Source of the DNA: a virus
Lineage: Duplodnaviria; Caudoviricetes
DNA length: 54,122 bases
Reading direction: 5' to 3' (one strand)
Virus record (IMG/VR): IMGVR_UViG_3300025674_000055
Coordinates: 1-54,122 of that record
In this document: positions 23,997 to 33,502 of the stretch, piece after piece
How the letters are laid out: each line of letters starts with the position of its first letter
How positions within the stretch are numbered: the first letter of the stretch is position 1
Translations under genes and position numbers: made by a program
Notes under the pieces: model-generated
Database searches by the model: none
The model's input: the letters and a program-made list of their open reading frames with translations, nothing else
Told to the model about the DNA's origin: nothing

Positions 23997-25100
23997 TTAC
24001 TCACATACGCTCGATTTTACCGATACGTTTCTGCGTGTCAAGGCATTATTCGCACTGTCGAAGGTATGCTTCATGTATGGTCGCACAGATGCAACATGAT
24101 TGTGTCCAGTCACCGACATGATCTGTGGCAATGGCACACCCTTGTCAACCATCTGTGTCACTCCTGTTCTACGTAAGTCCATGAGACGTAGCTCTTCAGG
24201 TAGGTCAGCCTCTCGCATGATACGTCTACCTACTTTCGACAGACGTTCCATACGATAGGGTGTGAACACTCCACGTTCAGGCTTAGGATATGGTGCAACA
24301 TACTTCTGAAAACCAAAGTCAGCTTTCTGCTGTGACAGCATGTAGTGCAGGTCATCTGAGATAGGCAGAAAAACTTCTGCTCTACGCTTGCTTTGTTCCA
24401 GATGTAGTTGCCTCTCGTCCAAGTCTATGTTATCCCATGTTAGCATCCTCATGTCACCCAAACGTTGGCACCACTCGTATGCCATGTGTATTATGATTCC
24501 CACGTTACGATAGTCAAAACTAGAATAAGCAACATCAAGGAAAGAGATAACATGTTCATGCTCCCACACTACTTTGCGCTGCTTAGGCTGCTTGCGCTTT
24601 ATGTTTCCAAATGGATTCACGAAAGCTTCTTCCATCGTGATCGCATAGTTATACACTCGACTAGCAGAGGTAGCCACGTGATTCGCAAAGCTGACACCCC
24701 GCTTCACCCATTCCTCATACACCTGCTTTGCAACCTTAGATGTAACAGACTGATACTTTCTGGTGCCAAGCTTGTCACATAATTCAGTGAGACAATACCT
24801 GTAATCTGCTTTAGTTGTCTCACGTAACATGTTGAAATCATTAGACTGATAATAGAACTCGACAAGATCAGACACAGTGCTGCTGTTGTTTAGCTTCACA
24901 ATCTGTGATTGAACATCACGATACTGATCGATGGCATCGTTATACTGTCGTGCAAGCTTACGCATCTCACGCACATCACTTGGCATCTCGCCACGAGTCA
25001 CAAGCCCTGCGTCTACCCACTTCTGTGGTGGGTTGTAACGGAAAGAGATGTCACCCGAAGGTGACACCCGTCGTTGCACATAGCGTGGCAGCTTTACCAT
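23997..25100 (-). CDS. Tyrosine recombinase / integrase
   Basis: QRLGD (R), QSK, MDLRRT, TGH, PY catalytic set. Confidence 0.9.
   Translation of the reverse strand: MVKLPRYVQRRVSPSGDISFRYNPPQKWVDAGLVTRGEMPSDVREMRKLARQYNDAIDQYRDVQSQIVKLNNSSTVSDLVEFYYQSNDFNMLRETTKADYRYCLTELCDKLGTRKYQSVTSKVAKQVYEEWVKRGVSFANHVATSASRVYNYAITMEEAFVNPFGNIKRKQPKQRKVVWEHEHVISFLDVAYSSFDYRNVGIIIHMAYEWCQRLGDMRMLTWDNIDLDERQLHLEQSKRRAEVFLPISDDLHYMLSQQKADFGFQKYVAPYPKPERGVFTPYRMERLSKVGRRIMREADLPEELRLMDLRRTGVTQMVDKGVPLPQIMSVTGHNHVASVRPYMKHTFDSANNALTRRNVSVKSSVCE
24014..24041 (-). promoter_or_regulatory. Sigma70-type promoter for primase-helicase, inside the integrase 3' end
   Basis: TTGACA-N16-TAAAAT. Confidence 0.6.
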
Positions 25101-25933
25101 TACGCTGCTTCCAGCATCTTGAAGCGATCATCACTGATCCACTTGCTTACCTCTTGCTCACGTGACCACATGCTGATTGCCTGTGTGTCGTTGCCAGTGT
25201 TACGCAGATTGAAACCATTACGTTCATCTGCATACGATGCGTAGTTTGTAAAGGCACTATACAATGCCCACTTGTTGTGACCACGCACTGATGCCTCTTG
25301 CATATACAAGCTATACATACGCTCTGCCTTGCGCTCAGAGCCAAGCATCTCTTCAAGCAGTGACGATACGTTCACATACTTGAGGCTTGTCTGTGCCCAC
25401 ACCTGCAACTCCTGTGACTGCTTCTTGAAGTCAGTCTGCGCACGATTCAGTTCATAGATGAAACTGTCCATCGTGAAGTTGGCAGTGTTCTTACGGCGCA
25501 CCTTGTCATAGTCTCCACGAATCATGCCATTGGTGCAGAAGAAATCGATCTGTCCAAAGAACACTTGATTGCTGCACGTGCCATCAATGCCATGCAGTGA
25601 GATGATTCGCTGTGCCACCTCAGTCTCGTGCTTGTCAGTCGCAATGACAGACTTAGTGTTAGGGAATGTAACATCCATCATAGTCCATGCACCATTACGT
25701 GCAGTGCGCCACTTGAACTTCGCAGTGCTGATCGCATCATCACCTAGTTCTTCCGTGAGTGTATCCACAACACCACTATAAAAGTCACGATGATTAGCGC
25801 AGTTAAACTTGTGTCCGACAATTCCAAGGTATTCTCCAGTCTTGCTGTTGATGACATACTTCTTGTCACTCACTTTGGTTTCTTCGAAAGCCACATCGAA
25901 GTCGAGGTATTCGGGAATCATGTCAAAAGCCAT
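25100..25933 (-). CDS. DUF932 family protein
   Basis: LGIVG, HGIDG.CS, FFCTNGM, WALYSAFT; AAGGAG RBS before MAFD. Confidence 0.8.
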   Translation of the reverse strand: MAFDMIPEYLDFDVAFEETKVSDKKYVINSKTGEYLGIVGHKFNCANHRDFYSGVVDTLTEELGDDAISTAKFKWRTARNGAWTMMDVTFPNTKSVIATDKHETEVAQRIISLHGIDGTCSNQVFFGQIDFFCTNGMIRGDYDKVRRKNTANFTMDSFIYELNRAQTDFKKQSQELQVWAQTSLKYVNVSSLLEEMLGSERKAERMYSLYMQEASVRGHNKWALYSAFTNYASYADERNGFNLRNTGNDTQAISMWSREQEVSKWISDDRFKMLEAA

Positions 25934-25998
25934 ATCGGTTCTCCTTTGGTTTACGTTTGGCAACTGTGCCATAGTTATGTAGATAGTTCAACACTAAA

Positions 25999-26397
25999 CT
26001 AATACGAATAGAACTTGTGTGTCCCATATGTAACAGTGTGGTTGAACTCTTCTGCCCAGTATGGGCTGACATAGTTAGCATGATAGAACAGTGCACCATC
26101 CGTAATGTCATCCACTATTCCATCAAGCACATCACGAGCGATTAGCTGGGCTTCTTCCCATGCTCGTGCGTTAGCGGGTCGTTCAGGTTTACCATCACAA
26201 TACCAACTGAACTGACACTGATGTAGTTCAGTGCTATGTCTCTGCTTTACTACAGCACACACAGTGTCTGGGAATCTGTCATGCGCAACACGATTCATCA
26301 CAACATGTGCAACGGCATACTTGCCCATCATGCCCTCACCACGTGCTTCGTAATACACATTCATGGCTAAGCATATAAGTGCTGTGTTAAGTAGCAT
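25999..26397 (-). CDS. Cell wall hydrolase (SleB / Hydrolase_2)
   Basis: CLAMNVYYEARGE, NRV...FP.TVC, CQFSW, HKFY. Confidence 0.92.
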   Translation of the reverse strand: MLLNTALICLAMNVYYEARGEGMMGKYAVAHVVMNRVAHDRFPDTVCAVVKQRHSTELHQCQFSWYCDGKPERPANARAWEEAQLIARDVLDGIVDDITDGALFYHANYVSPYWAEEFNHTVTYGTHKFYSY

Positions 26398-26896
26398 GAT
26401 CCTTGTCCTCAAACCATTCTGGCACAGGTCTGCTAGACCATACCATGTGGAAGCGTTGTTGCTTAGTCTTGTAGAACTTGCGGTAACTTTCAACAGGCCA
26501 CGGCTCATGTGATCTAAGATGCACATGATCCCCGAAACACTCAGGGTGATCTGTCATGCCTACATCATCAAGCATCCATGTTGCATCAGACAGTGCTGGT
26601 AGCAGCCGCTCTGACGCATGGTATTTGCCATAGCGATGTGTGTATTCATGTAGCATAGCACGAAACAGATGCAGGGAATACATGTAGTTTGAACGAGACA
26701 TGCCAGCCCACAGTGTGCAGGGATGGTTCTTATGTGCTACACGATACAGGCCATACTTGTCTGCATAGTCAGGGTCAAGCTGACGCACTACAGTAGACAG
26801 CATCTGTGCCTCTTCTAGCGGCATCTTAACTACGTGCTTGTCACACAGTGACTGTGCGATAGCTTCTGGTGTGTGGTCAATAATAAATCGGTTCAT
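26387..26896 (-). CDS. Pyrimidine dimer DNA glycosylase (DenV-like)
   Basis: DKHVVKMPLE.AQMLS, HKNHPCTLW, EYTHRYGK.H. Confidence 0.85.
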   Translation of the reverse strand: MNRFIIDHTPEAIAQSLCDKHVVKMPLEEAQMLSTVVRQLDPDYADKYGLYRVAHKNHPCTLWAGMSRSNYMYSLHLFRAMLHEYTHRYGKYHASERLLPALSDATWMLDDVGMTDHPECFGDHVHLRSHEPWPVESYRKFYKTKQQRFHMVWSSRPVPEWFEDKDHAT

Positions 26897-27197
26897 CTGC
26901 ATTTCTCCGGTTAGGTCCAACGTTGGACTTAGTTTGCTTCTCGAACACAACATCCTTACGCACTCGCCAATATACCCAGCTTAGCTGGCAGTGATGGCGT
27001 TCACGAAACACATAACGTGCAACAAAGTCTATGATGGGAACAAAGTTAAACTTACCCTCACGTTTCCACCCATAGTTACGGGCACTGAATGTCTGATTGC
27101 TAGGACCAAATGTGATCACATTGAATAGCACAGACAGAGCTATGCCTATTCGCTTTAGGTAATCGATCAAGGTTCTTCCATTCATCGCAGGGATCAT
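26877..27197 (-). CDS. Hypothetical membrane-associated protein
   Basis: ALSVLFNV..G.SNQTFSAR motif; C-terminus encoded by a palindrome copy. Confidence 0.7.
   Translation of the reverse strand: MIPAMNGRTLIDYLKRIGIALSVLFNVITFGPSNQTFSARNYGWKREGKFNFVPIIDFVARYVFRERHHCQLSWVYWRVRKDVVFEKQTKSNVGPNRRNADEPIYY
26911..26932. repeat. Early-region palindrome, copy 1
   Basis: TTAG-GTCCAACGTTGGAC-TTAG. Confidence 0.95.
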
Positions 27198-27199
27198 CC

Positions 27200-27439
27200 T
27201 CAGTTAATTGCCATTGGTGCTTCATAGATGTAGTCATACTCTTCATATTCCTCTGCTTCATACTCAGCCACAGACACAAGATCAATGTGCACAGCTTCAG
27301 GATAGTTGTGCCTAGCCAGCATGAAGGCAAAGTGAGTGGCAGTTTTCCAATCCTCAATCGATGGGTAAGTGTCATCCAGTTGAATGACACTCTCCACACC
27401 ATCGACTTCAAGTGTAATTTCGTAAGCATTAACTATCAT
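27200..27439 (-). CDS. Hypothetical acidic protein
   Basis: GGAG RBS before MIVN. Confidence 0.65.
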   Translation of the reverse strand: MIVNAYEITLEVDGVESVIQLDDTYPSIEDWKTATHFAFMLARHNYPEAVHIDLVSVAEYEAEEYEEYDYIYEAPMAIN

Positions 27440-27608
27440 TGTTTGCACTCCATCCTTTCATGCGATCAGGGTAGACAAGAAACAGATCATACTTGATGTA
27501 GTCTTTTTCTTTTTCAATGAAAGCCATTGCTCTTTCAGTTGTGCTGAACAACGTATCATCCCAAAAGAACCAGCCCATTGGTGTGTGACAAGCTACTTTA
27601 CATGGCAT
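27429..27608 (-). CDS. Hypothetical protein (59 aa; not in ORF track)
   Basis: Hand translation MPCKVACHTPMGWFFWDD...; AGGAG RBS. Confidence 0.55.
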   Translation of the reverse strand: MPCKVACHTPMGWFFWDDTLFSTTERAMAFIEKEKDYIKYDLFLVYPDRMKGWSANNDS

Positions 27609-27626
27609 CAGTTCATCTCCTGCTGT

Positions 27627-27875
27627 TCAAATGTTCACGTATTTATCCAGAAACTTTATCTCTAAAGTTATGTGAACATGATTAAAACTAGCGTAGATAC
27701 CGCTTAGCACATCGAATGCTTGAAAAACACTCTTGCGAAAAGCCTCAGTGTTTACATCATCACCCTGACTGAAAGGTATCTCAGTCAGAATCTCTTTTGT
27801 TTCGTTCTGTTCAAATGCATCTTCTACAGTGTAGACTGTGATGACAGCATCCGCAGTTTCGAACCAGATATTCAT
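27627..27875 (-). CDS. Hypothetical protein
   Basis: Starts just after the upstream stop. Confidence 0.65.
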   Translation of the reverse strand: MNIWFETADAVITVYTVEDAFEQNETKEILTEIPFSQGDDVNTEAFRKSVFQAFDVLSGIYASFNHVHITLEIKFLDKYVNI

Positions 27876-27876
27876 A

Positions 27877-28353
27877 TCATTCATCCTCATCTTCACTGAT
27901 GTATTCCAGATGATTAAAGTATTCATCTTCCAGATTACAAGTGTCAATAACGTCCTGTGGAATATCCTCTCGCCATGACGTATCGTTGAAGTCAATTTCA
28001 TAGAAGCAATCTTCACTGTCTGCATACACACCAGCAAAGCACATGCCGGGTTCGTAGTAGTATGCAGTCACAGAGATGCCAAGCCGTTCTTCACCTTTCA
28101 TGTAGGCACCGATAGGTGGAGACCATGCAGAGTCAAAGCTAAGTGTTAGTTCCTGTGTCTCAGGATTAAGTTCCCAATCCACAGCGGACACATCCCACTT
28201 GGTTCCCCATGTTTCCACGGCAGTGTCATACTCCCACTCACCAATAGGTGCTAGGTATTCCAGTAGGCGGTTCTCCTTCACCGCCTCTGCAATGGCTTCC
28301 AGTGTGGCGTAATCGCCAGTGATTGTGGCAGTGTTCATGCACCAGTTAGGCAT
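27877..28353 (-). CDS. DUF1281 / YubB ferredoxin-like protein
   Basis: MPNWC.N, WGTKWD, FDSAWSPP, YYEPG..FAG. Confidence 0.85.
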   Translation of the reverse strand: MPNWCMNTATITGDYATLEAIAEAVKENRLLEYLAPIGEWEYDTAVETWGTKWDVSAVDWELNPETQELTLSFDSAWSPPIGAYMKGEERLGISVTAYYYEPGMCFAGVYADSEDCFYEIDFNDTSWREDIPQDVIDTCNLEDEYFNHLEYISEDEDE

Positions 28354-28364
28354 AGTGTCTCTCC

Positions 28365-28589
28365 TTATCCAGCAAAGTGAAACAGCTTACGCTGAGACTT
28401 GGGGTTACGTTCAACATACAAGCTGAACTTGCCAACGTGATGTGCAGTCATACACTCGTCACGCTTGAACAGCTTGAAGCCACGAGACTTGTGCTTACGC
28501 TTACGCACCAGACCCTTGAGGCCAAGCACATTGAAGCGGAAACCTTTGGTGGTGTCGTTGAGAGGCTTAGTTGCGACGATGATAAACAT
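28365..28589 (-). CDS. Hypothetical basic protein
   Basis: AAGGAG RBS. Confidence 0.75.
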   Translation of the reverse strand: MFIIVATKPLNDTTKGFRFNVLGLKGLVRKRKHKSRGFKLFKRDECMTAHHVGKFSLYVERNPKSQRKLFHFAG

Positions 28590-28601
28590 GTGTAGTTCTC
28601 C

Positions 28602-28967
28602 TTATGCTGCGTAGGTAGTAGGGGTGAAGTCAATTTGTTGCCAGCCATATGAACAGCAGGCATATGCTTTCTCAGCCTCTATGTCAACGAGCACATCGCC
28701 AACAGACATAGAGTAGGCATGACGAAACTTTTCAATGCGAGACTTGCTATTGCTAGGGTAGCCATTGCCAACATTAAAGGCTTCTTCAATGTCATGGGCA
28801 GCAATCAGTGCCACCAACTTGTATAGGTTGAACACACAGGCTGCATCGACAGGCTTCTGTGCCTCTCCATCACGCAGCAGCATGGTGTCAAACTTGATGT
28901 CACGAAACACTTGCGTCTGAATTTGCTGAGTGTTCAGTTTGATCTGATACAGAAGATAGCTAGGCAT
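28602..28967 (-). CDS. Hypothetical protein
   Basis: SMSVGDV motif; AAGG RBS before MPSY. Confidence 0.7.
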   Translation of the reverse strand: MPSYLLYQIKLNTQQIQTQVFRDIKFDTMLLRDGEAQKPVDAACVFNLYKLVALIAAHDIEEAFNVGNGYPSNSKSRIEKFRHAYSMSVGDVLVDIEAEKAYACCSYGWQQIDFTPTTYAA

Positions 28968-29148
28968 TGGATAGTTCCTTTTCAATAAGTCTGGTTTCAC
29001 ATTCACAATCAACGCAATGACTTACGTCATAGGTGGCAGCAAGTGTCCATTTCTGTTCTTCAACAGACCACATGGCATAGGCATCAAGCATAACATTGTC
29101 ACTGCCACAGTGCTTACAAACTATCGTGACTTTACTATCAGACATCAT
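28960..29148 (-). CDS. Small Zn-finger protein
   Basis: CKHCGS...CVDC. Confidence 0.7.
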   Translation of the reverse strand: MMSDSKVTIVCKHCGSDNVMLDAYAMWSVEEQKWTLAATYDVSHCVDCECETRLIEKELSNA

Positions 29149-29279
29149 GCAACCTTTCGTGCTTGTTGTTTCTGTTTACGTGCAATCTTGCGATCACGTT
29201 TCCAGTCATCACGTTTCTCAGTTTTAGGTCCAACATTGGACTTAGCAAACTTAATAAAGTTTTTCATCTCGTAACGCAT
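29145..29279 (-). CDS. Small basic protein (44 aa; not in ORF track)
   Basis: Hand translation MRYEMKNFIKFAKSNVGPKTEKRDDWKRDRKIARKQKQQARKVA; AAGG RBS. Confidence 0.7.
   Translation of the reverse strand: MRYEMKNFIKFAKSNVGPKTEKRDDWKRDRKIARKQKQQARKVA
29224..29245. repeat. Early-region palindrome, copy 2
   Basis: TTAG-GTCCAACATTGGAC-TTAG. Confidence 0.95.
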
Positions 29280-29403
29280 TTTGCTTTTCCTTCTTCGTCA
29301 ACTTGCGTTTGTTACCCTTCTTGGGCGGTATGACCTGTGGGGCTTTGCGCTCTTGCAGCATAGCCTTTGCCACAGGATTTACAATCCCCACTTTGATCTT
29401 CAT
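29251..29403 (-). CDS. Small basic hypothetical protein
   Basis: NPVAKAM...QVIPPKKG; GAGG RBS. Confidence 0.65.
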   Translation of the reverse strand: MKIKVGIVNPVAKAMLQERKAPQVIPPKKGNKRKLTKKEKQNALRDEKLY

Positions 29404-29404
29404 A

Positions 29405-29647
29405 TCACATACACCTCTCTGCTGCGATAAACTTGCGTAGCCAATCTGTGGCATTAGACTTTGAGTAAACCTCTATCTTAGGAGGAGCGCCTACAAACTT
29501 ACTAGAACGAGGGTTATACTTTTCTTCTAGGCTGCGGCATCTCCAATGCAGTCCATCAAGGGAATAGGCGTATGCTAGCATAGTTCCGTTATCCCAAACT
29601 GACATCTCCCACTTAGGAAAAAGGTCGAGTAATCCGTGATGTTTCAT
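29405..29647 (-). CDS. Hypothetical protein
   Basis: GGAG RBS, tight packing. Confidence 0.6.
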   Translation of the reverse strand: MKHHGLLDLFPKWEMSVWDNGTMLAYAYSLDGLHWRCRSLEEKYNPRSSKFVGAPPKIEVYSKSNATDWLRKFIAAERCM

Positions 29648-29648
29648 A

Positions 29649-30347
29649 TCAGTGCTCCGACAAATGCACTACCACAGTGCGGTTGATAGTTTTCTGTGAG
29701 AAACAGCCAGCCTTGCAGACAGCACAGTGTCCAGCCATTTTCTTCCATGTCTTAGGACACTTGAACATGTCCTTGCCTTTGGGGTCAACAGTGCGAGTGT
29801 CATCCCCATAGAACATGATGTTCCAGCCAGCATCCTGCATCATCTGCCACTCATCATCCGTGTTGGATGGATCGAATGACGCATTGATTGCACAATTGGG
29901 TAGGGTCATCAATTCGATTTCAATCAAGCTGCGAAGCATGACATTGCGCCACGCTCTCGTGGGTATCCACCACAGTGTGTCAGGTGTAGCCTCACACATA
30001 GCCTTGATGCGATACACATCTTCGATGGAACTGATAGCCTCACCACGTGTCATGTGACGCACTCGTTTGGTCTGCTTACGCTTCTTGTCCAGCCAAGCTT
30101 TGACACTCTGCATGGACTGCACAGACAGTTTCTGCCAGATCGTCTCACAACGATCATCACGCTTAGCCATGTTCTTATACATACGATACAGCTTGACGTT
30201 GTAGCAAGTTGCATCGCAGTAGTCAGTGCGGTGCACACAAGTGCCTTTGTGGTTCTCCGTGTCATTGATGGGGCGGTCACTGGCATACATACCAATGTCA
30301 TCGCAGAAACGAAATAGGTCATTCAGTTCGGCAGTAGAGACAGTCAT
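29649..30347 (-). CDS. GP88-like (radical-SAM-related) Fe-S protein
   Basis: TC-x6-C-x3-CY motif, VRHMTRGE, WIPTR, C-terminal CP...C..C...C. Confidence 0.7.
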   Translation of the reverse strand: MTVSTAELNDLFRFCDDIGMYASDRPINDTENHKGTCVHRTDYCDATCYNVKLYRMYKNMAKRDDRCETIWQKLSVQSMQSVKAWLDKKRKQTKRVRHMTRGEAISSIEDVYRIKAMCEATPDTLWWIPTRAWRNVMLRSLIEIELMTLPNCAINASFDPSNTDDEWQMMQDAGWNIMFYGDDTRTVDPKGKDMFKCPKTWKKMAGHCAVCKAGCFSQKTINRTVVVHLSEH

Positions 30348-30363
30348 GGTGTCACCTTTGGTG

Positions 30364-30385
30364 TTAGGTCCAACGTTGGACTTAA
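30364..30385. repeat. Early-region palindrome, copy 3 (intergenic, just upstream of the GP88-like RBS)
   Basis: TTAG-GTCCAACGTTGGAC-TTAA. Confidence 0.95.
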
Positions 30386-30410
30386 GGTTTCAGTGTTAAT
30401 GTATATACAT

Positions 30411-30448
30411 GTTATATAACACTTTCATAAATTCAAGTGTTATATAAC
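30411..30448. repeat. 14-bp AT-rich inverted repeat
   Basis: GTTATATAACACTT-N10-AAGTGTTATATAAC. Confidence 0.9.
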
Positions 30449-30468
30449 TGTAATACTATTAAATGTCA

Positions 30469-30630
30469 TCAATGGGGAAAATACCACTGAACATGGTATC
30501 CCCCAATGCCGGGGAAGAAAAAGCCAAAGCCATCGAACTCAACATACGTGTAGGGCCACAATGCCGTGATCACAATGGCAAGGCACAGGAACAGGACAAA
30601 CGTAAGTTTGAAGTATAGACGATAGAGCAT
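30469..30630 (-). CDS. Small membrane protein (53 aa; not in ORF track)
   Basis: Hand translation MLYRLYFKLTFVLFLCLAIVITALWPY...; AAGG RBS. Confidence 0.6.
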   Translation of the reverse strand: MLYRLYFKLTFVLFLCLAIVITALWPYTYVEFDGFGFFFPGIGGYHVQWYFPH

Positions 30631-30631
30631 G

Positions 30632-30799
30632 TTACACCTTTTTCAGTTTGGGTTTTCCATTAGGTCCAATGTTGGACTTAGCTTCGATTGCTTGCAATCT
30701 GTTACGCAACTGCGCTGCACGATCCTCAGCAGACACAGGTTTACGTAGCCTAGCACTGCTAGACTTCCAGTTAAATTGCTTATGCAATTTATAGGTCAT
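30632..30799 (-). CDS. Hypothetical basic protein
   Basis: AAGGAG RBS before MTYK. Confidence 0.7.
   Translation of the reverse strand: MTYKLHKQFNWKSSSARLRKPVSAEDRAAQLRNRLQAIEAKSNIGPNGKPKLKKV
30660..30681. repeat. Early-region palindrome, copy 4
   Basis: TTAG-GTCCAATGTTGGAC-TTAG. Confidence 0.95.
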
Positions 30800-30876
30800 C
30801 GGTCGAACACTCCTTCGAACCACATGGCTATAGCCAAAGGTATGCCAAAGCATAGGACAAGCACAAGCACAGTCAT
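30796..30876 (-). CDS. 26-aa hydrophobic peptide (not in ORF track)
   Basis: MTVLVLVLCFGIPLAIAMWFEGVFDR; GAGG RBS; ATGA coupling. Confidence 0.5.
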   Translation of the reverse strand: MTVLVLVLCFGIPLAIAMWFEGVFDR

Positions 30877-30877
30877 G

Positions 30878-31078
30878 TCACACTTCCTCATGAAATTCTG
30901 CATCCCATTCCTCTGGAATGATGCCAGTCATCAGAAACTCACGTTGCTCTGGTGACAAATGTGGCATGGCATCCTGTATAAGCATACCCTCTCGCCATGA
31001 CAGGTATTGGTGCATTGTGATAGGCAGGTCCATCACATGTGTTTTGCCAGTCAGCACAGATTGACGTTCTATACGCAT
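30878..31078 (-). CDS. Conserved phage hypothetical protein
   Basis: LIQDAMPHLS...REFLMTG....EW motif; AAGG RBS. Confidence 0.75.
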   Translation of the reverse strand: MRIERQSVLTGKTHVMDLPITMHQYLSWREGMLIQDAMPHLSPEQREFLMTGIIPEEWDAEFHEEV

Positions 31079-31148
31079 AGTAAAACCTTTCAGGTTTGGG
31101 TTGAACCACCAATACTGCCCCATAAAGGGGCAGCATGAATGGCTGAAC

Positions 31149-31736
31149 TCAGGCAGCTTTGCTGACAGCCTTAGCATTGTCAGCATATTCTGCAAGAATA
31201 TCATCGATGACATCCAGCACATTGATGCCACTTGCTTCGCAAACAGCCTTGAGTTGCTTGACGATATCACCTTTGGTGATGACAGGCTTGGCAGCTTCCT
31301 TAGCTTCGCTATTAGGTCCAACATTGGACTTAGCTTCACCTTTGGTGGAAGCAGCTTCAGCCTTCCCAGTGCCTTCGGCACTTTTACGCATTGCTGCTTG
31401 AAGAGCAGTCAGAGAGGTGAAACCTTTCTTGCTTTCAGCAAGGAATTGGCGGCACTCCTTTTCGTTTTCAACGAACCACAGAGCCTCAGAACGGCGACGT
31501 TTATCCACTATGTGGATTCCACAATCCTTCAGCCTTTGGCTGGAAATACGCTCACCACCCTCAGCCTTCAACTGCTGAAGCAGTTTGCCCAACCGAGTGT
31601 CAAAGCCATCGGCTTTGGTGAAGGCATTGAAACGACGAACATCAGCTTTGCTGATCTGTTTCCATTCTGCTGCCAGAATGAAGCCTTCAGCTTCAAGAGT
31701 GTTGATTTCCGGCTTGTTGATGGTCGAAGTGGTCAT
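31149..31736 (-). CDS. First early gene, hypothetical protein
   Basis: 195 aa, host-like codon use, purine-rich RBS. Confidence 0.8.
   Translation of the reverse strand: MTTSTINKPEINTLEAEGFILAAEWKQISKADVRRFNAFTKADGFDTRLGKLLQQLKAEGGERISSQRLKDCGIHIVDKRRRSEALWFVENEKECRQFLAESKKGFTSLTALQAAMRKSAEGTGKAEAASTKGEAKSNVGPNSEAKEAAKPVITKGDIVKQLKAVCEASGINVLDVIDDILAEYADNAKAVSKAA
31312..31333. repeat. Early-region palindrome, copy 5
   Basis: TTAG-GTCCAACATTGGAC-TTAG. Confidence 0.95.
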
Positions 31737-32039
31737 GGCTTTCTCTTTCTCTATCTGTTGTTACATATAAGAGATATTTTTATCTCTCACAAAAAGTGAG
31801 ATAAAAATAGCTCTATGTAACTTAAACAGATAGAGAGTTAGGGTGGATCGGTCAAGGGGGTCAATCAAATTTGTTTTACAAATTACCTGCAACGTGATCC
31901 TCCGCACGGGTCGTTTCGCATGTGACTGCAAAAAATATATTTCATATATATTTTTGAAGTTCGTGCGTGAAACTCGTGAGACAGCTTGGCTAAGACGACA
32001 GGATGAGTGTGGCATTATTACAACAGTATAACTGTTGGC

Positions 32040-32057
32040 AGGTCCAACGTTGGACTA
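32040..32057. repeat. Early-region palindrome, copy 6 (intergenic)
   Basis: AG-GTCCAACGTTGGAC-TA. Confidence 0.9.
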
Positions 32058-32631
32058 GTCAGTGACCAAAGCCTTCGGCTTAACATGTGATGTGATGTGA
32101 TGACATGTGACCATCGAAGATGGGAGGGTGGTAGTTTATGCATCGACATCGCAACAGTGACCCACCTCACCCCATTGGGGGTGGTGACACAGAAAATACC
32201 ACGGCAACTGATTCTATATCAGTTGTTCACCTTGGCTAAGTCACTGAATCTGTTACAGCTTTGCTGTAGTTGGTGGAAGTGAGGCATTGGTTTTGTTTCA
32301 CCACAGGTCATGACATTGCATTATGCAGGCAATTGTGCAGTGAACAGGGGGTGGGCAGGGGCCAGTGCCGGGTGTGGCGTAGTTGTATATGGCTCTCTAC
32401 ACAGATCAGGAAAAATGTACTGTTAACCACATTACATATATAGTGGTTTACACACAGGCTGGGTTGCTAAATGTGATCACAAATATGGGTGTGTTTGGGT
32501 GCATCTGCGGATATGGTCACTTAAGTGTACACTACTTGTGATCACAAAAGTATGGCAGGTGATGTGCCTGCACAAGTAGCTGTACTGTGGCAACAGTGTC
32601 ACACTAAATTTGTTTCTCACGAAGATATTGC

Positions 32632-32662
32632 TTGACATGGGGTATGAATATGTGTAAAACTA
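32632..32662 (+). promoter_or_regulatory. Sigma70-type promoter
   Basis: TTGACA-N17-TAAAACTA. Confidence 0.65.
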
Positions 32663-32668
32663 TATATA

Positions 32669-32813
32669 ACACTTAAACTAAGATTACACTTAAAGTGCTT
32701 ACATGTACAGTGTACACTTAGATGTTTCTATATACTAACTTAGATATACACTTATCTGTATATAATACTTAGAATGAATAAACACTTAGGTAACACGTAC
32801 AGTGTTACACTTA
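32669..32813 (+). repeat. Array of ACACTTA heptamers
   Basis: Exact copies at 32669, 32686, 32714, 32748, 32782, 32807, plus AACTTAG/TACTTAG variants. Confidence 0.85.
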
Positions 32814-32848
32814 AGTGTACTATCCCTGAAAGGAAGAATACGTATATG

Positions 32849-32882
32849 CCTCGCAGTTTACTGCGGGGAGCTTTGTATTTTT
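32849..32882 (+). terminator. Terminator-like hairpin
   Basis: CCTCGCAG-TTTA-CTGCGGGG followed by AGCTTTGTATTTTT. Confidence 0.55.
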
Positions 32883-32886
32883 ATAG

Positions 32887-33108
32887 TTGACTTCTATGAA
32901 AAAATCAGTAAAACTATATACAGACAATGTTCTTGAAGAATTTTACAAGCATCTAATGGATGGTAATCTTGAGGACTTACATATTCCGCACAGTGATGTA
33001 TTCTACGTGAGAGAAGCAGTAAGTGCGCACTATGGCCGTATCTTTACGTTAGAAGAAGTTGAACGTGCCATGAGACTAGAAGGATGGACAGATGGACATG
33101 AAGAATGA
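32887..33108 (+). CDS. Hypothetical protein (start uncertain)
   Basis: First late-arm ORF; LHIPHSDVFYVR motif. Confidence 0.7.
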   Translation: MTSMKKSVKLYTDNVLEEFYKHLMDGNLEDLHIPHSDVFYVREAVSAHYGRIFTLEEVERAMRLEGWTDGHEE

Positions 33109-33502
33109 CAAGAAGGGTTTGATGGCATCCTTTGTGGTGGGCATGGATATTGCTCCTGACATTGTAGATGCTAAGACCAATGCAAAGAATGCTGAGATGG
33201 TTGTACGTGAGTGGAACCTTGGCCCTGAGACTCCCTCTGAAGTACCCGGTGAGAATGCTGAGTACTGGCGTGATATGGCAGACAGATGGCAGATTGAAGA
33301 GGCAGAGGCACGTAGACGTATGTGTGCTAACTGTGAATACTTCTGCAATACTCCCGGCATGATGATGGCTATGGAAGATATTCCCTTCAACGAAATGGAT
33401 GAAGGTGCAGGTGGCAGAGGTTACTGCAAGAAGTTCTCCTTCATTTGTCATAACCTTCGTACATGTCAGGCATGGGACAAAGGTGACGACTACTATGGCT
33501 AA
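33092..33502 (+). CDS. Cys-rich protein with HiPIP-like spacing
   Basis: CANCEYF...GYC......C....TCQAW. Confidence 0.65.
   Translation: MDMKNDKKGLMASFVVGMDIAPDIVDAKTNAKNAEMVVREWNLGPETPSEVPGENAEYWRDMADRWQIEEAEARRRMCANCEYFCNTPGMMMAMEDIPFNEMDEGAGGRGYCKKFSFICHNLRTCQAWDKGDDYYG

Follow-up and report, generated by a model that had tools for sequence, protein, structure and literature searches.

What does a short palindrome do that recurs six times in the early region of a marine phage, in some places between genes and in others inside them? The window analyzed, 54,122 bases, is the entire virus record and represents a complete HMO-2011-type podophage. An exact scan of it for GTCCAAYRTTGGAC returned six matches, with cores at 26915, 29228, 30368, 30664, 31316 and 32042, whereas 100 dinucleotide-preserving shuffles returned none (mean 0, maximum 0); at ≤2 mismatches no further site was found in the 54,122 bases. 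All six cores fall within 26.9 to 32.1 kb and have the same polarity, at the head of a leftward operon, with the integrase and replication genes lying downstream, in agreement with the early confinement and shared orientation reported in an earlier, sequence-only reading of this DNA. On the + strand the core centers on CG in three copies, CA in two and TG in one. The flanking direct TTAG repeat, described in that reading as nearly exact in five copies, holds on the 5′ side of the + strand (five of six, with GCAG at 32042) but on the 3′ side is present in four, with TTAA at 30368 and TAGT at 32042. Read on the gene (−) strand, the unit is CTAA-GTCCAAYRTTGGAC-CTAA. The sites and their surroundings, in the direction of the genes, are the following.

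32038 to 32059 (core 32042 to 32055), minus strand: site 1, intergenic, at the head of the leftward early operon, with deviating flanks (ACTA...CTGC).
32021 to 32037, minus strand: second hairpin, directly 3′ of site 1 in gene sense, with a stem that covaries in 14 relatives.
31964 to 31975, minus strand: conserved box, GAGTTTCACGCA in the form found in the window, in the leader downstream of site 1.
31149 to 31736, minus strand: first early gene, gp01-like, 195 aa.
31312 to 31333 (core 31316 to 31329), minus strand: site 2, within the first early gene, read KSNVGP.
30660 to 30681 (core 30664 to 30677), minus strand: site 3, in the C-terminal tail of ORF 30632–30853 and 33 nt ahead of the ATG (30630) of the next ORF, 30469–30630.
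30386 to 30463, minus strand: AT-rich element directly 5′ of site 4, 82 to 92% conserved in many relatives, which may be a promoter or other signal.
30364 to 30385 (core 30368 to 30381), minus strand: site 4, intergenic, 20 nt ahead of the ATG (30347) of ORF 29649–30347, a Pfam GP88 family member with the ribosome-binding site AAGGTG.
29251 to 29454, minus strand: small basic ORF e8, overlapping the beginning of e9.
29145 to 29279, minus strand: e9, encoding a very basic protein of 44 aa and containing site 5.
29224 to 29245 (core 29228 to 29241), minus strand: site 5, within the small basic ORF e9.
26911 to 26932 (core 26915 to 26928), minus strand: site 6, in the C-terminal tail of ORF 26877–27197 and 18 nt ahead of the next gene's ATG (26896), with GGAG as ribosome-binding site.
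26387 to 26896, minus strand: pyrimidine-dimer DNA glycosylase gene (Pfam Pyr_excise), directly behind site 6, present or absent among relatives with the break at the motif edge.

The four copies inside ORFs (26877–27197, 29145–29279, 30632–30853 and 31149–31736) are all translated as K-S-N-(V/I)-G-P, as had been observed before, and the copies at 30368 and 32042 are intergenic. However, because the 22-mer of this lineage carries two TAA stops in one of its three sense frames, agreement of four copies out of four would be expected by chance about one time in eight when the window is taken by itself. We therefore turn to relatives, gathered as 80 related viral contigs fetched via their DUF932 protein and not by the motif. 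GTCC-N6-GGAC was present in 58 of the 80, with 212 copies in 722,580 bases compared to 0 for the reversed control. CRP-1 harbors four exact copies and CRP-345 five, and HMO-2011 carries a variant, GTCCG-N4-CGGAC, three times, each ahead of a Shine–Dalgarno (SD) sequence and ATG and with CTGT or ACAG as its loop. Genomes contain 4 to 8 copies, and sites within one genome have common flanks and evolve in concert. Among 81 genomes from the family of a Planktomarina MAG, exact cores were found in four (five sites compared to three for the reversed control), so that in these genomes it does not mark a host regulon. The element is restricted to the HMO-2011/CRP-1 branch of HMO-2011-type podophages. 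These are a very abundant marine phage group, and the hairpin marks many early genes of one branch; our literature search found no published description of it.

Analysis of site orientation revealed a close coupling to translation starts. Of 100 sites typed by their flanks, 90 had the polarity of the coding strand, and an SD with an ATG that starts an ORF of ≥40 aa lay 10 to 29 nt behind the core at 108 of 233 sites, compared to 134 of 2,159 random positions. An SD and start codon followed 101 of 171 unique sites, the SD at 7 to 12 nt in 82 of these 101 and the start at 18 to 25 nt in 84. In a set oriented by protein, SD and start lay behind 54 of 119 unique sites on the sense side and 2 of 119 on the antisense side, and 50 of the 119 had the start codon 18 to 25 nt behind the core. 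The remaining sites map to disordered linkers or tails of early proteins, where they are read S-N-V-G. For example, the model of the first early protein consists of a helical N-terminal domain, a disordered linker (residues 126 to 147, pLDDT <50) and a small C-terminal helical domain, and site 2 falls in the predicted linker. Upstream of most sites is coding sequence and not a promoter.

The sequences also covary as a stem. In the 119 unique sites the four outer pairs (4+4 bases) are invariant, while the fifth is A-U in 92, G-C in 20, G-U in 7 and unpaired in 0, such that 595 of 595 stem cells are paired. The synonymous core positions C4, T10 and A13 are fixed throughout, except for T10>C accompanying A5>G. 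When the site is read as S-N-V-G, T10>C leaves the amino acid unchanged (GTT>GTC) and A5>G replaces Asn with Asp, yet T10>C never occurs alone. This freezing of silent positions supports the earlier proposal that it is the nucleic acid and not the peptide that is under selection. In a larger set, the sense-strand G5·T10 combination was present in 14 unique contexts with at least five flank types, which, given the shared flanks and concerted evolution within genomes, represent about 5 lineages rather than 14 independent events. Its mirror, A5·C10, appeared in a single unique context, a mis-oriented copy that is the reverse complement of a G·T site at the edge of a divergent region. The loop, too, is biased between strands (TG 68 vs. 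CA 26 unique sites; ATGT 64 vs. ACAT 25 over 4 nt). Mutational strand bias could contribute to these asymmetries. In six of six window contexts, folding predicts the stem-loop as the minimum-free-energy feature, but the hairpin is weak, at about −6 kcal/mol, with a stability no greater than that of shuffled sequence (z −0.2 to −2.1).

Start-site coupling, covariation and the strand-specific G·T pair together argue for a sense-strand stem-loop, most likely in mRNA, that would serve as a post-transcriptional operator of early genes; we give this reading a probability of about 50%. The unit would be GUCCR-NNNN-YGGAC, in which GUCC and one R-Y pair make up the 5-bp stem and A-Y-R-U the 4-nt loop, and it would be repeated as a cis-acting operator in the early polycistronic mRNA of the HMO-2011/CRP-1 branch. 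At about half of the sites it stands 7 to 12 nt 5′ of the SD and 18 to 25 nt 5′ of the next start codon, the others being placed in tolerant coding sequence such as disordered linkers and tails. From a hairpin this weak whose four outer pairs never vary, we infer a sequence-specific reader, probably a small basic phage-encoded protein or an endoribonuclease, which would act in concert on the translation, processing or stability of early transcripts, for instance in early-gene shut-off. Transcription through the sites is assumed. Site 1, which lies upstream of a weak σ70-like match (CTGCCA-16-AATAAT) that it abuts, might escape transcription from that promoter.

Searches by Pfam, PHROGs, PDB sequence and fold identified no reader protein. 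Two candidates are proposed. The first is e9, whose family (44 to 57 aa, W-K-R-(D/E)-R-K-x-A-R-K) comprises 48 distinct sequences, gathered under the condition that each ORF contain a site; e9 itself has no detectable homolog among named proteins. The second candidate is e8, whose HMO-2011 homolog lies directly behind that phage's variant hairpin.

The main rival, which we consider less likely, is a double-stranded DNA operator, where a dimeric phage regulator would bind the 14-bp palindrome and block or activate early transcription. The sequence-only reading had favored a DNA site for a dimeric protein. The dyad is perfect, and four invariant stem pairs are unusual for an RNA helix and commoner in double-stranded DNA recognition. 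At the center, CG>TG and CG>CA are tolerated but TA was never seen (0 of 252, with ∼14 expected if both center positions varied independently), a pattern compatible with a pair of half-sites that may not both be altered. The HMO-2011 loop is found in both orientations, so it is not strictly read there. Site 1 abuts the σ70-like match, and the branch has several unknown early proteins in common; as no site regulon was evident in the host-family genomes, such an operator would need a phage-encoded binder. However, hybrid half-sites run one way (14 G·T vs. the one mis-oriented A·C), the tight spacing to SD and start, confined to the sense side, has no obvious operator meaning, and most sites follow coding sequence. 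The promoter scan gave 7 matches, below the shuffle mean of 14.2, and no helix-turn-helix or other DNA-binding family was detected among the 43 window ORFs scanned. Of the three partners proposed earlier, which include the integrase, two gained no support: the first early protein gave a confident helical model but no PDB fold match (best E 2), and the ParB-like protein, encoded among structural genes, had a sub-threshold Pfam match (17.7 bits vs. a cut-off of 26.3, E 0.0038). The DNA site thus fits the data less well than the sense hairpin.

That core, flanks and SD together mainly provide short homology or a specific site for exchange of early cassettes between phages, much as in the promoter/stem-loop cassettes of T4-type phages, appears improbable. 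Relative to one related contig, L033, the single-gene indels 26387–26896 and 30469–30630 have a breakpoint at a site's 3′ edge. Metagenome contigs have loose ends at 26910, 30384, 30387 and 30682 (6 of 24 among the matches listed, with 250 further) and, again among the matches listed, joints 26932>29344 and 30384>31389, although short-sided joints (23 letters) are unreliable. Contig L249 combines five group-B sites with one of foreign type (G-C, group-A flank), accompanied by an upstream gene of another lineage. The suggestion that sites mark gene-content breakpoints thus holds for some population variants, but a crude and saturating test was neutral, with HSP ends near 59 of 70 motif-preceded and 565 of 708 other gene starts. 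Other indels relative to L033 have no site at their ends, any conserved island resembles an alignment boundary, and exchange leaves both the covariation and the sites inside conserved genes unexplained.

We regard as still less probable a signal in single-stranded DNA, either an N4-like hairpin promoter for an unrecognized phage RNA polymerase or a priming signal, from which transcription or priming would begin a few bases behind the hairpin. A 5-bp hairpin with a short loop, polarity matching the genes, restriction to the early region and a short fixed SD distance, which would give short leaders, are all compatible with it, and DNA hairpins tolerate G·T wobble too. N4-type promoters, however, fold in the template strand, where the observed variant would be an A·C mismatch. 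No RNA polymerase was evident either: Pfam and PHROGs were silent for the 1202-, 674-, 642- and 582-aa proteins except for tail-fiber matches of one, searching PDB sequences found no relevant match for the 1202-, 582- or 674-aa protein, and published descriptions of HMO-2011-type phages searched by term do not mention one. Finally, a K-S-N-V-G-P peptide motif common to early proteins, with DNA conservation secondary, is very improbable: S-N-V-G is the only long open frame at 53 sites, compared to 11 and 10 for the other frames, but this bias stems from a few conserved families (gp01 and e9), no long open frame crosses 74 of 171 unique sites, stop codons precede many sites, intergenic copies contradict it, and amino acids do change (Asn>Asp, Val>Ile) where silent positions do not.

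The sense-strand stem-loop can be compared with several known systems. Integron attC sites are imperfect hairpins of 57 to 141 nt with extra boxes and bulged bases. The canonical core halves fit their inverse-core/core consensus (RYYYAAC/GTTRRRY). Also shared are a polarity matching that of the genes, an ORF start a short distance behind the site and, downstream, a gene for a tyrosine integrase. The present element, however, is 14 nt and its G-C and HMO-2011 variants misfit the consensus, and we treat the fit as coincidence. In mycobacteriophages L5 and Bxb1, the immunity repressor binds stoperators, which are asymmetric sites in double-stranded DNA. These also occur in many copies, in one orientation relative to transcription and partly within or between genes, but are spread genome-wide, whereas the core here is palindromic, hairpin-forming, covarying and limited to the early region. 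The promoter-early stem-loop (PeSL) cassettes of T4-type phages, reportedly described by Arbiol, Comeau and Krisch in 2010, similarly place a repeated stem-loop unit beside small variable early genes, with some coinciding gene-content breaks; our unit is much shorter, has no conserved promoter and was neutral in the hotspot test. In λ-type nut sites, present once per early operon, the boxB hairpin is bound by the arginine-rich N protein. Here, too, a 5-bp hairpin would be present in early transcripts and a very basic protein, e9, is encoded nearby by a message that itself carries a site, but there are 4 to 8 copies per genome, tied to gene starts, and e9 has no named homolog. T4 RegA targets and the MS2 coat-protein operator overlap the SD or AUG, and a single phage protein shuts off translation; the resemblance is that several early genes carry a small hairpin or sequence where translation is initiated, although ours ends 7 to 12 nt 5′ of the SD. 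In the early region of T7, host RNase III cuts at long, irregular duplexes. The 5-bp stem described here is too short for that enzyme, has four invariant pairs and sometimes lies within coding sequence. Like the T7 sites, however, it forms several conserved structured copies between co-directional early genes, just 5′ of the next ribosome-binding site, as in a polycistronic early message made by host polymerase.

An exact scan of the complete virus record (54,122 bp) located the core GTCCAAYRTTGGAC at six sites, starting at 26915, 29228, 30368, 30664, 31316 and 32042, compared to none in 100 shuffled sequences. No further site was found in the 54,122-bp window at up to two mismatches, and all six lie within 26911–32059, a density of six over 5.1 kb. 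The motif is thus real and confined to the early region, as the sequence-only reading had claimed by eye. The genes bearing the sites are encoded on the − strand, from a non-coding stretch at about 32060–32890 down to the integrase and replication genes. In gene orientation the unit is CTAA-core-CTAA, and the 14-bp palindrome shows perfect dyad symmetry in three of the six copies and one central change in the other three. Three sites are followed by a plausible ribosome-binding site and an ATG (26915 at 18 nt, 30368 at 20 nt and 30664 at 33 nt), while 32042 is followed 26 nt on by an ATG that lacks a clear ribosome-binding site and opens an ORF of non-coding appearance. An Rfam search of 26000–33500 returned nothing at gathering score. 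The same region and its surroundings contain the following features:

32060–32890, non-coding, about 830 nt between the divergent operons, with ACACTTA(A/G) repeats and AT-rich palindromes
32021–32037, − strand, second hairpin behind the first site, its stem covarying among 14 relatives
31964–31975, − strand, nearly invariant box after the second hairpin
31742–31844, long AT-rich inverted repeat just upstream of the first early gene, with sub-threshold Rfam miRNA-like matches only, that is, a long hairpin
30386–30463, − strand, AT-rich element directly 5′ of site 30368, 82–92% conserved in many relatives
27877–28353, − strand, protein weakly resembling DUF1281_C
25100–25972, − strand, DUF932 protein

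The stretch between the operons, in which blocks 32203–32452 and 32899–33092 are conserved in many relatives, could be a promoter, origin or attP region. The AT-rich element at 30386–30463, which has a similar counterpart ahead of the first variant hairpin in phage HMO-2011 (L190:20–58), is a possible promoter internal to the early region. The second hairpin and the box (31964–32037) point to a conserved leader with structure, or to a small RNA, in front of the first early gene. An 84-aa ORF at 31761–32015 (− strand) is probably not a gene, because its composition is odd and it overlaps both this non-coding leader and the AT-rich hairpin. Members of the DUF1281_C and DUF932 families are found in leading regions of conjugative plasmids, so the two proteins may serve anti-defence or takeover.

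The window DNA polymerase shares 78% identity with its counterparts in Roseobacter phages CRP-345 and CRP-1 and 67% with that of Puniceispirillum phage HMO-2011, and the window is therefore an HMO-2011-type podophage. That relatives should share the motif, as the sequence-only reading required, is borne out by the exact cores of CRP-1 (four) and CRP-345 (five), located in the first 2.2 kb, before gene 1, and in one later gene. HMO-2011 has no core at up to one mismatch and carries three copies of a variant, GTCCG-N4-CGGAC, each followed by a Shine-Dalgarno (SD) sequence and an ATG. Repeated GTCC-N6-GGAC was not found in the early 6–10.7 kb of four other isolates, CRP-207, CRP-2, HTVC033P and CRP-3, CRP-2 having one odd match. 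In IMG/VR, a flank-constrained pattern matched 82 stretches, and the bare CG core gave more than 119 matches, many of them single chance matches. Loci with at least two cores numbered 84 and totaled 302 cores, and related loci carry up to eight sites each. For an unbiased sample, 80 contigs were fetched via the neighboring DUF932 protein and not via the motif; GTCC-N6-GGAC was present in 58 of these, with 212 copies compared to 0 for the reversed control. Searches of published full text with the core sequences found no paper. The words promoter and palindrome are absent from the available text of the CRP-1 (PMC6918029) and HMO-2011-type (PMC9038755) genome papers, whose supplements might hold motif analyses, and a literature search on promoters in these phages turned up unrelated papers. 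This cis-element is real and conserved, has not been described before, and belongs to one branch of an abundant group of marine phages. The integrase genes of CRP-1, CRP-345 and relatives contain a near-core, GTCCAAGGTTGGAC (L088:6868–6881, L005:7079–7092 and 19 copies in L203–L282), translated in a different frame (V-Q-G-W-T); the window integrase lacks it.

Flanks are alike within one genome and differ between lineages (for example, YTAA-core-CTAA, GAAACC-core-ACTTT and ACG-core-CC), and 90 of 100 flank-typed sites obey coding-strand polarity. Conservation is limited to the 14-bp core and 4-nt flanks, with nothing conserved 5′ of position −4 across sites. An SD and the ATG of a real ORF were present 10–29 nt behind the core at 108 of 233 sites, compared to 134 of 2,159 control positions. 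Specifically, an SD and start codon follow 101 of 171 unique sites, the SD at 7–12 nt in 82 and the start at 18–25 nt in 84. In the protein-oriented set, an SD and start were found in the sense direction at 54 of 119 and in the antisense direction at 2 of 119, with the start at 18–25 nt in 50. In its constant orientation and placement with respect to gene starts, the element behaves as expected of a cis-acting RNA stem-loop.

The other sites are inside genes, chiefly two conserved ones: gp01, the first early gene (31149–31736), where the site falls in an AlphaFold-disordered linker flanked by two confident helical domains, and e9, a 44-aa basic ORF (29145–29279), where it falls in a spacer of variable length. 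The earlier observation that the four window copies inside ORFs share one frame holds, in that all four read K-S-N-(V/I)-G-P (the other two copies are intergenic); taken from the window by itself it is a weak argument, since two stop codons close one of the 22-mer's three sense frames. Among intragenic sites generally the S-N-V-G frame prevails, resting on few gene families.

The core can fold as a 5-bp stem with a 4-nt loop, and this fold is predicted in all six window contexts, at about −6 kcal/mol (−5.9 for the stem), no better than shuffled sequence. Across 119 unique protein-oriented sites, all 595 stem cells are paired. Only the fifth pair is informative here, because the search pattern itself dictated the outer four; it is A-U in 92, G-C in 20, G-U in 7 and unpaired in none, a covariation score reached in 0 of 500 shuffles. 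Three GTCC-N6-GGAC matches outside the early cluster (GTCCGTAACAGGAC, GTCCCTTTGAGGAC and GTCCGTGTAAGGAC) were removed as chance matches from the set of 122 unique contexts; with these included, the fifth pair is also G.A twice and C.A once. The sense strand therefore shows the compensatory and wobble changes of a cis-acting RNA stem-loop, though only one of five pairs varies.

Two further scans collected hybrid forms, which were counted in loci carrying three or more sites. For G5.T10 in sense orientation there were 14 unique contexts, spanning at least five flank types; one context is in L033, a close relative of the window. Its mirror, A5.C10, occurred in one context. That copy is a G.T site in reverse complement, located at the border of the divergent region, a place at which the strand assignment breaks down. 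In the S-N-V-G frame T10>C is synonymous and A5>G changes Asn to Asp, yet T10>C never occurs alone. A-U and G-C sites coexist in one genome (L249), and the loop is strand-biased (TG 68 versus CA 26). Together, this asymmetry, the missing lone T10>C, the mixed genome and the loop bias favor a hairpin on the sense strand. We give about even odds (roughly 0.5) to a sense-strand stem-loop tied to translation starts, its mode of action being inferred.

The leading rival is a palindromic operator in double-stranded DNA, bound by a dimeric regulator. The dyad symmetry of the 14-bp palindrome is as expected of an operator, and several properties speak against a hairpin: the four invariant pairs are atypical of an RNA helix, the center is TA in 0 of 252, and the HMO-2011 loop occurs in either orientation. 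In addition, sites evolve in concert within genomes, so that independent events come from about five lineages. These properties fit a DNA reader with two half-sites or are at least neutral between the readings. An operator would be expected to tolerate changes equally in both half-sites, however, and the 14 G5.T10 contexts against a single mis-oriented A5.C10, with the TG excess in the loop, do not show this. As for promoters next to the sites, coding sequence lies upstream of most sites, only the first site adjoins a weak sigma-70-like match, and the scan gave 7 such matches with 14.2 expected. We consider an operator unlikely, although it deserves serious weight.

A second rival has the unit acting mainly as a recombination linker. 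That copies mark gene-content breakpoints, as earlier suggested, is seen in individual comparisons. Two differences of one gene each from relative L033 have their break precisely at a site's 3′ edge: 26387–26896 (a pyrimidine-dimer glycosylase) and the ORF at 30469–30630. Four metagenome runs yielded contigs with loose ends at 26910, 30384, 30387 and 30682, which account for 6 of the 24 loose-end rows listed out of many more, and with two joints that start at a motif edge. A global excess was not seen: alignments end at 59 of 70 motif-preceded gene starts compared to 565 of 708 others, in a crude test that saturates. Linking as the main role is improbable, and cassette exchange at the unit is plausible as a side effect. 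The glycosylase gene (26387–26896, − strand; Pfam Pyr_excise, DenV-like) is found in CRP-1, CRP-345 and several contigs and is absent from L033, the closest contig.

A single-stranded DNA signal or hairpin promoter would also draw on the ability of the core to fold. We rate this reading a shade below the linker. A peptide motif, to which the prevailing S-N-V-G frame would point, can hardly be credited given the intergenic copies. A restriction site was rejected because a restriction-modification target should be depleted, and this one stands ahead of gene starts, and an integron attC site was rejected on anatomy.

A host transcription-factor regulon is unlikely. In the family of a Planktomarina MAG, 4 of 81 genomes contain the exact core (five sites versus three for the control), and the general pattern occurs 7 times in the MAG itself versus 14 for the control. 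The recurrence expected of a regulon was therefore not seen in the genomes searched. Within the MAG the exact core is confined to one odd contig end. A prophage search of genome contigs gave 0 matches for the group-B 22-mer and two loci for the group-A 20-mer, one probably chance and the other this contig end. At the start of that contig (L284:350–2512), 1.3 kb is enclosed by a 431-nt inverted repeat with 97% complementarity. Both arms contain an A-T core and a G-C core, oriented outwards; the interior is similar to window 32346–32481, and the remaining contig encodes host genes. The locus represents either a remnant of phage origin or an artefact of assembly.

We found no DNA- or RNA-binding family or RNA polymerase by Pfam (40 window ORFs) or PHROGs (10); a scan of 43 window ORFs likewise gave no DNA-binding family, many ORFs having no assigned family. 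The searches run also revealed no recognizable RNA polymerase, repressor or sigma factor in HMO-2011-type phages. PDB sequence searches with five proteins and a gp01 profile returned nothing relevant, and the gp01 model (mean pLDDT 82.6) matched no PDB fold (best E 2). The ParB-like ORF, once proposed as a partner, is a sub-threshold hit among structural genes. All motif-bearing isolates share e8 (a small basic ORF, 29251–29454), the ORF at 27200–27439 and the DUF932 protein, and all except HMO-2011 share e9; none of the four was found in the early parts of the four motif-less isolates. The e9 profile recovered CRP-1 and CRP-345, missed HMO-2011 ORF 1405–1557, which is similar by eye, and had no match in the early parts of CRP-2, CRP-207, HTVC033P and CRP-3; in Atlas, e9 falls only in unnamed viral clusters. 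The HMO-2011 homolog of e8 lies directly behind a hairpin. Both e8 and e9 are very basic and are therefore reasonable candidates for the hairpin reader. Their genes (29145–29454, − strand) overlap by about 30 nt in different frames, and HMO-2011 has the same arrangement in unannotated ORFs (L190:1287–1557). HMO-2011 also has an unannotated 53-aa ORF with a good SD directly behind its first variant hairpin (L190:95–256).

In its fullest form, which we regard as doubtful, the hairpin reading is that one HMO-2011-type branch possesses a dedicated post-transcriptional regulon. A sequence-specific RNA hairpin, GUCCR-NNNN-YGGAC, would precede most early genes or lie within them, and a small basic peptide made by the phage would recognize it; this would be e8 or e9, each with a site in or next to its own message. 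Early translation or message processing would thereby be switched on or off as a block, with the unit doubling as a joint for cassette swaps between phages. We know of nothing on the timing of gene expression in these phages, for which the element is the first candidate regulatory signal, sharply defined and easily scanned for. HMO-2011-type phages are described as a dominant, globally distributed marine virus group (PMC9038755, abstract). Cultures in which the signal could be tested exist for CRP-1 and CRP-345 (RCA roseobacter hosts) and for HMO-2011 (SAR116 host). The signal also marks true gene starts amid many unannotated small ORFs, flags the early region in metagenomic fragments and offers a handle on the organization and exchange of early-gene cassettes, which probably serve host takeover and anti-defence.

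Among known systems, attC sites are long imperfect hairpins with paired R and L boxes and bulged bases; the present element is far too short, its conservation stopping at the core and 4-nt flanks. Mycobacteriophage stoperators are spread over the whole genome, whereas this element is palindromic and local. The T4 PeSL unit includes an early promoter, while here nothing is conserved 5′ of −4 and there is no sigma-70-like excess; with respect to breakpoint marking by PeSL, individual cases agree and the crude global count (59/70 versus 565/708) does not add to them. A lambda-type nut occurs once per early operon, shortly behind the promoter, and six copies over 5.1 kb, or up to eight per related locus, are too many; with respect to an N-like arginine-rich antiterminator, e9 is very basic and matches nothing named. 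RNase III sites of the T7 early type have a duplex of about 20 bp or more, for which the 5-bp stem (−5.9 kcal/mol) is too short, and unlike T4 RegA targets and the MS2 operator, the element does not overlap the SD or AUG. With these differences, the element would by analogy resemble most closely either the hairpins between cistrons in phage early messages (T7 RNase III) or translational operators that a single phage protein recognizes (T4 RegA, MS2).
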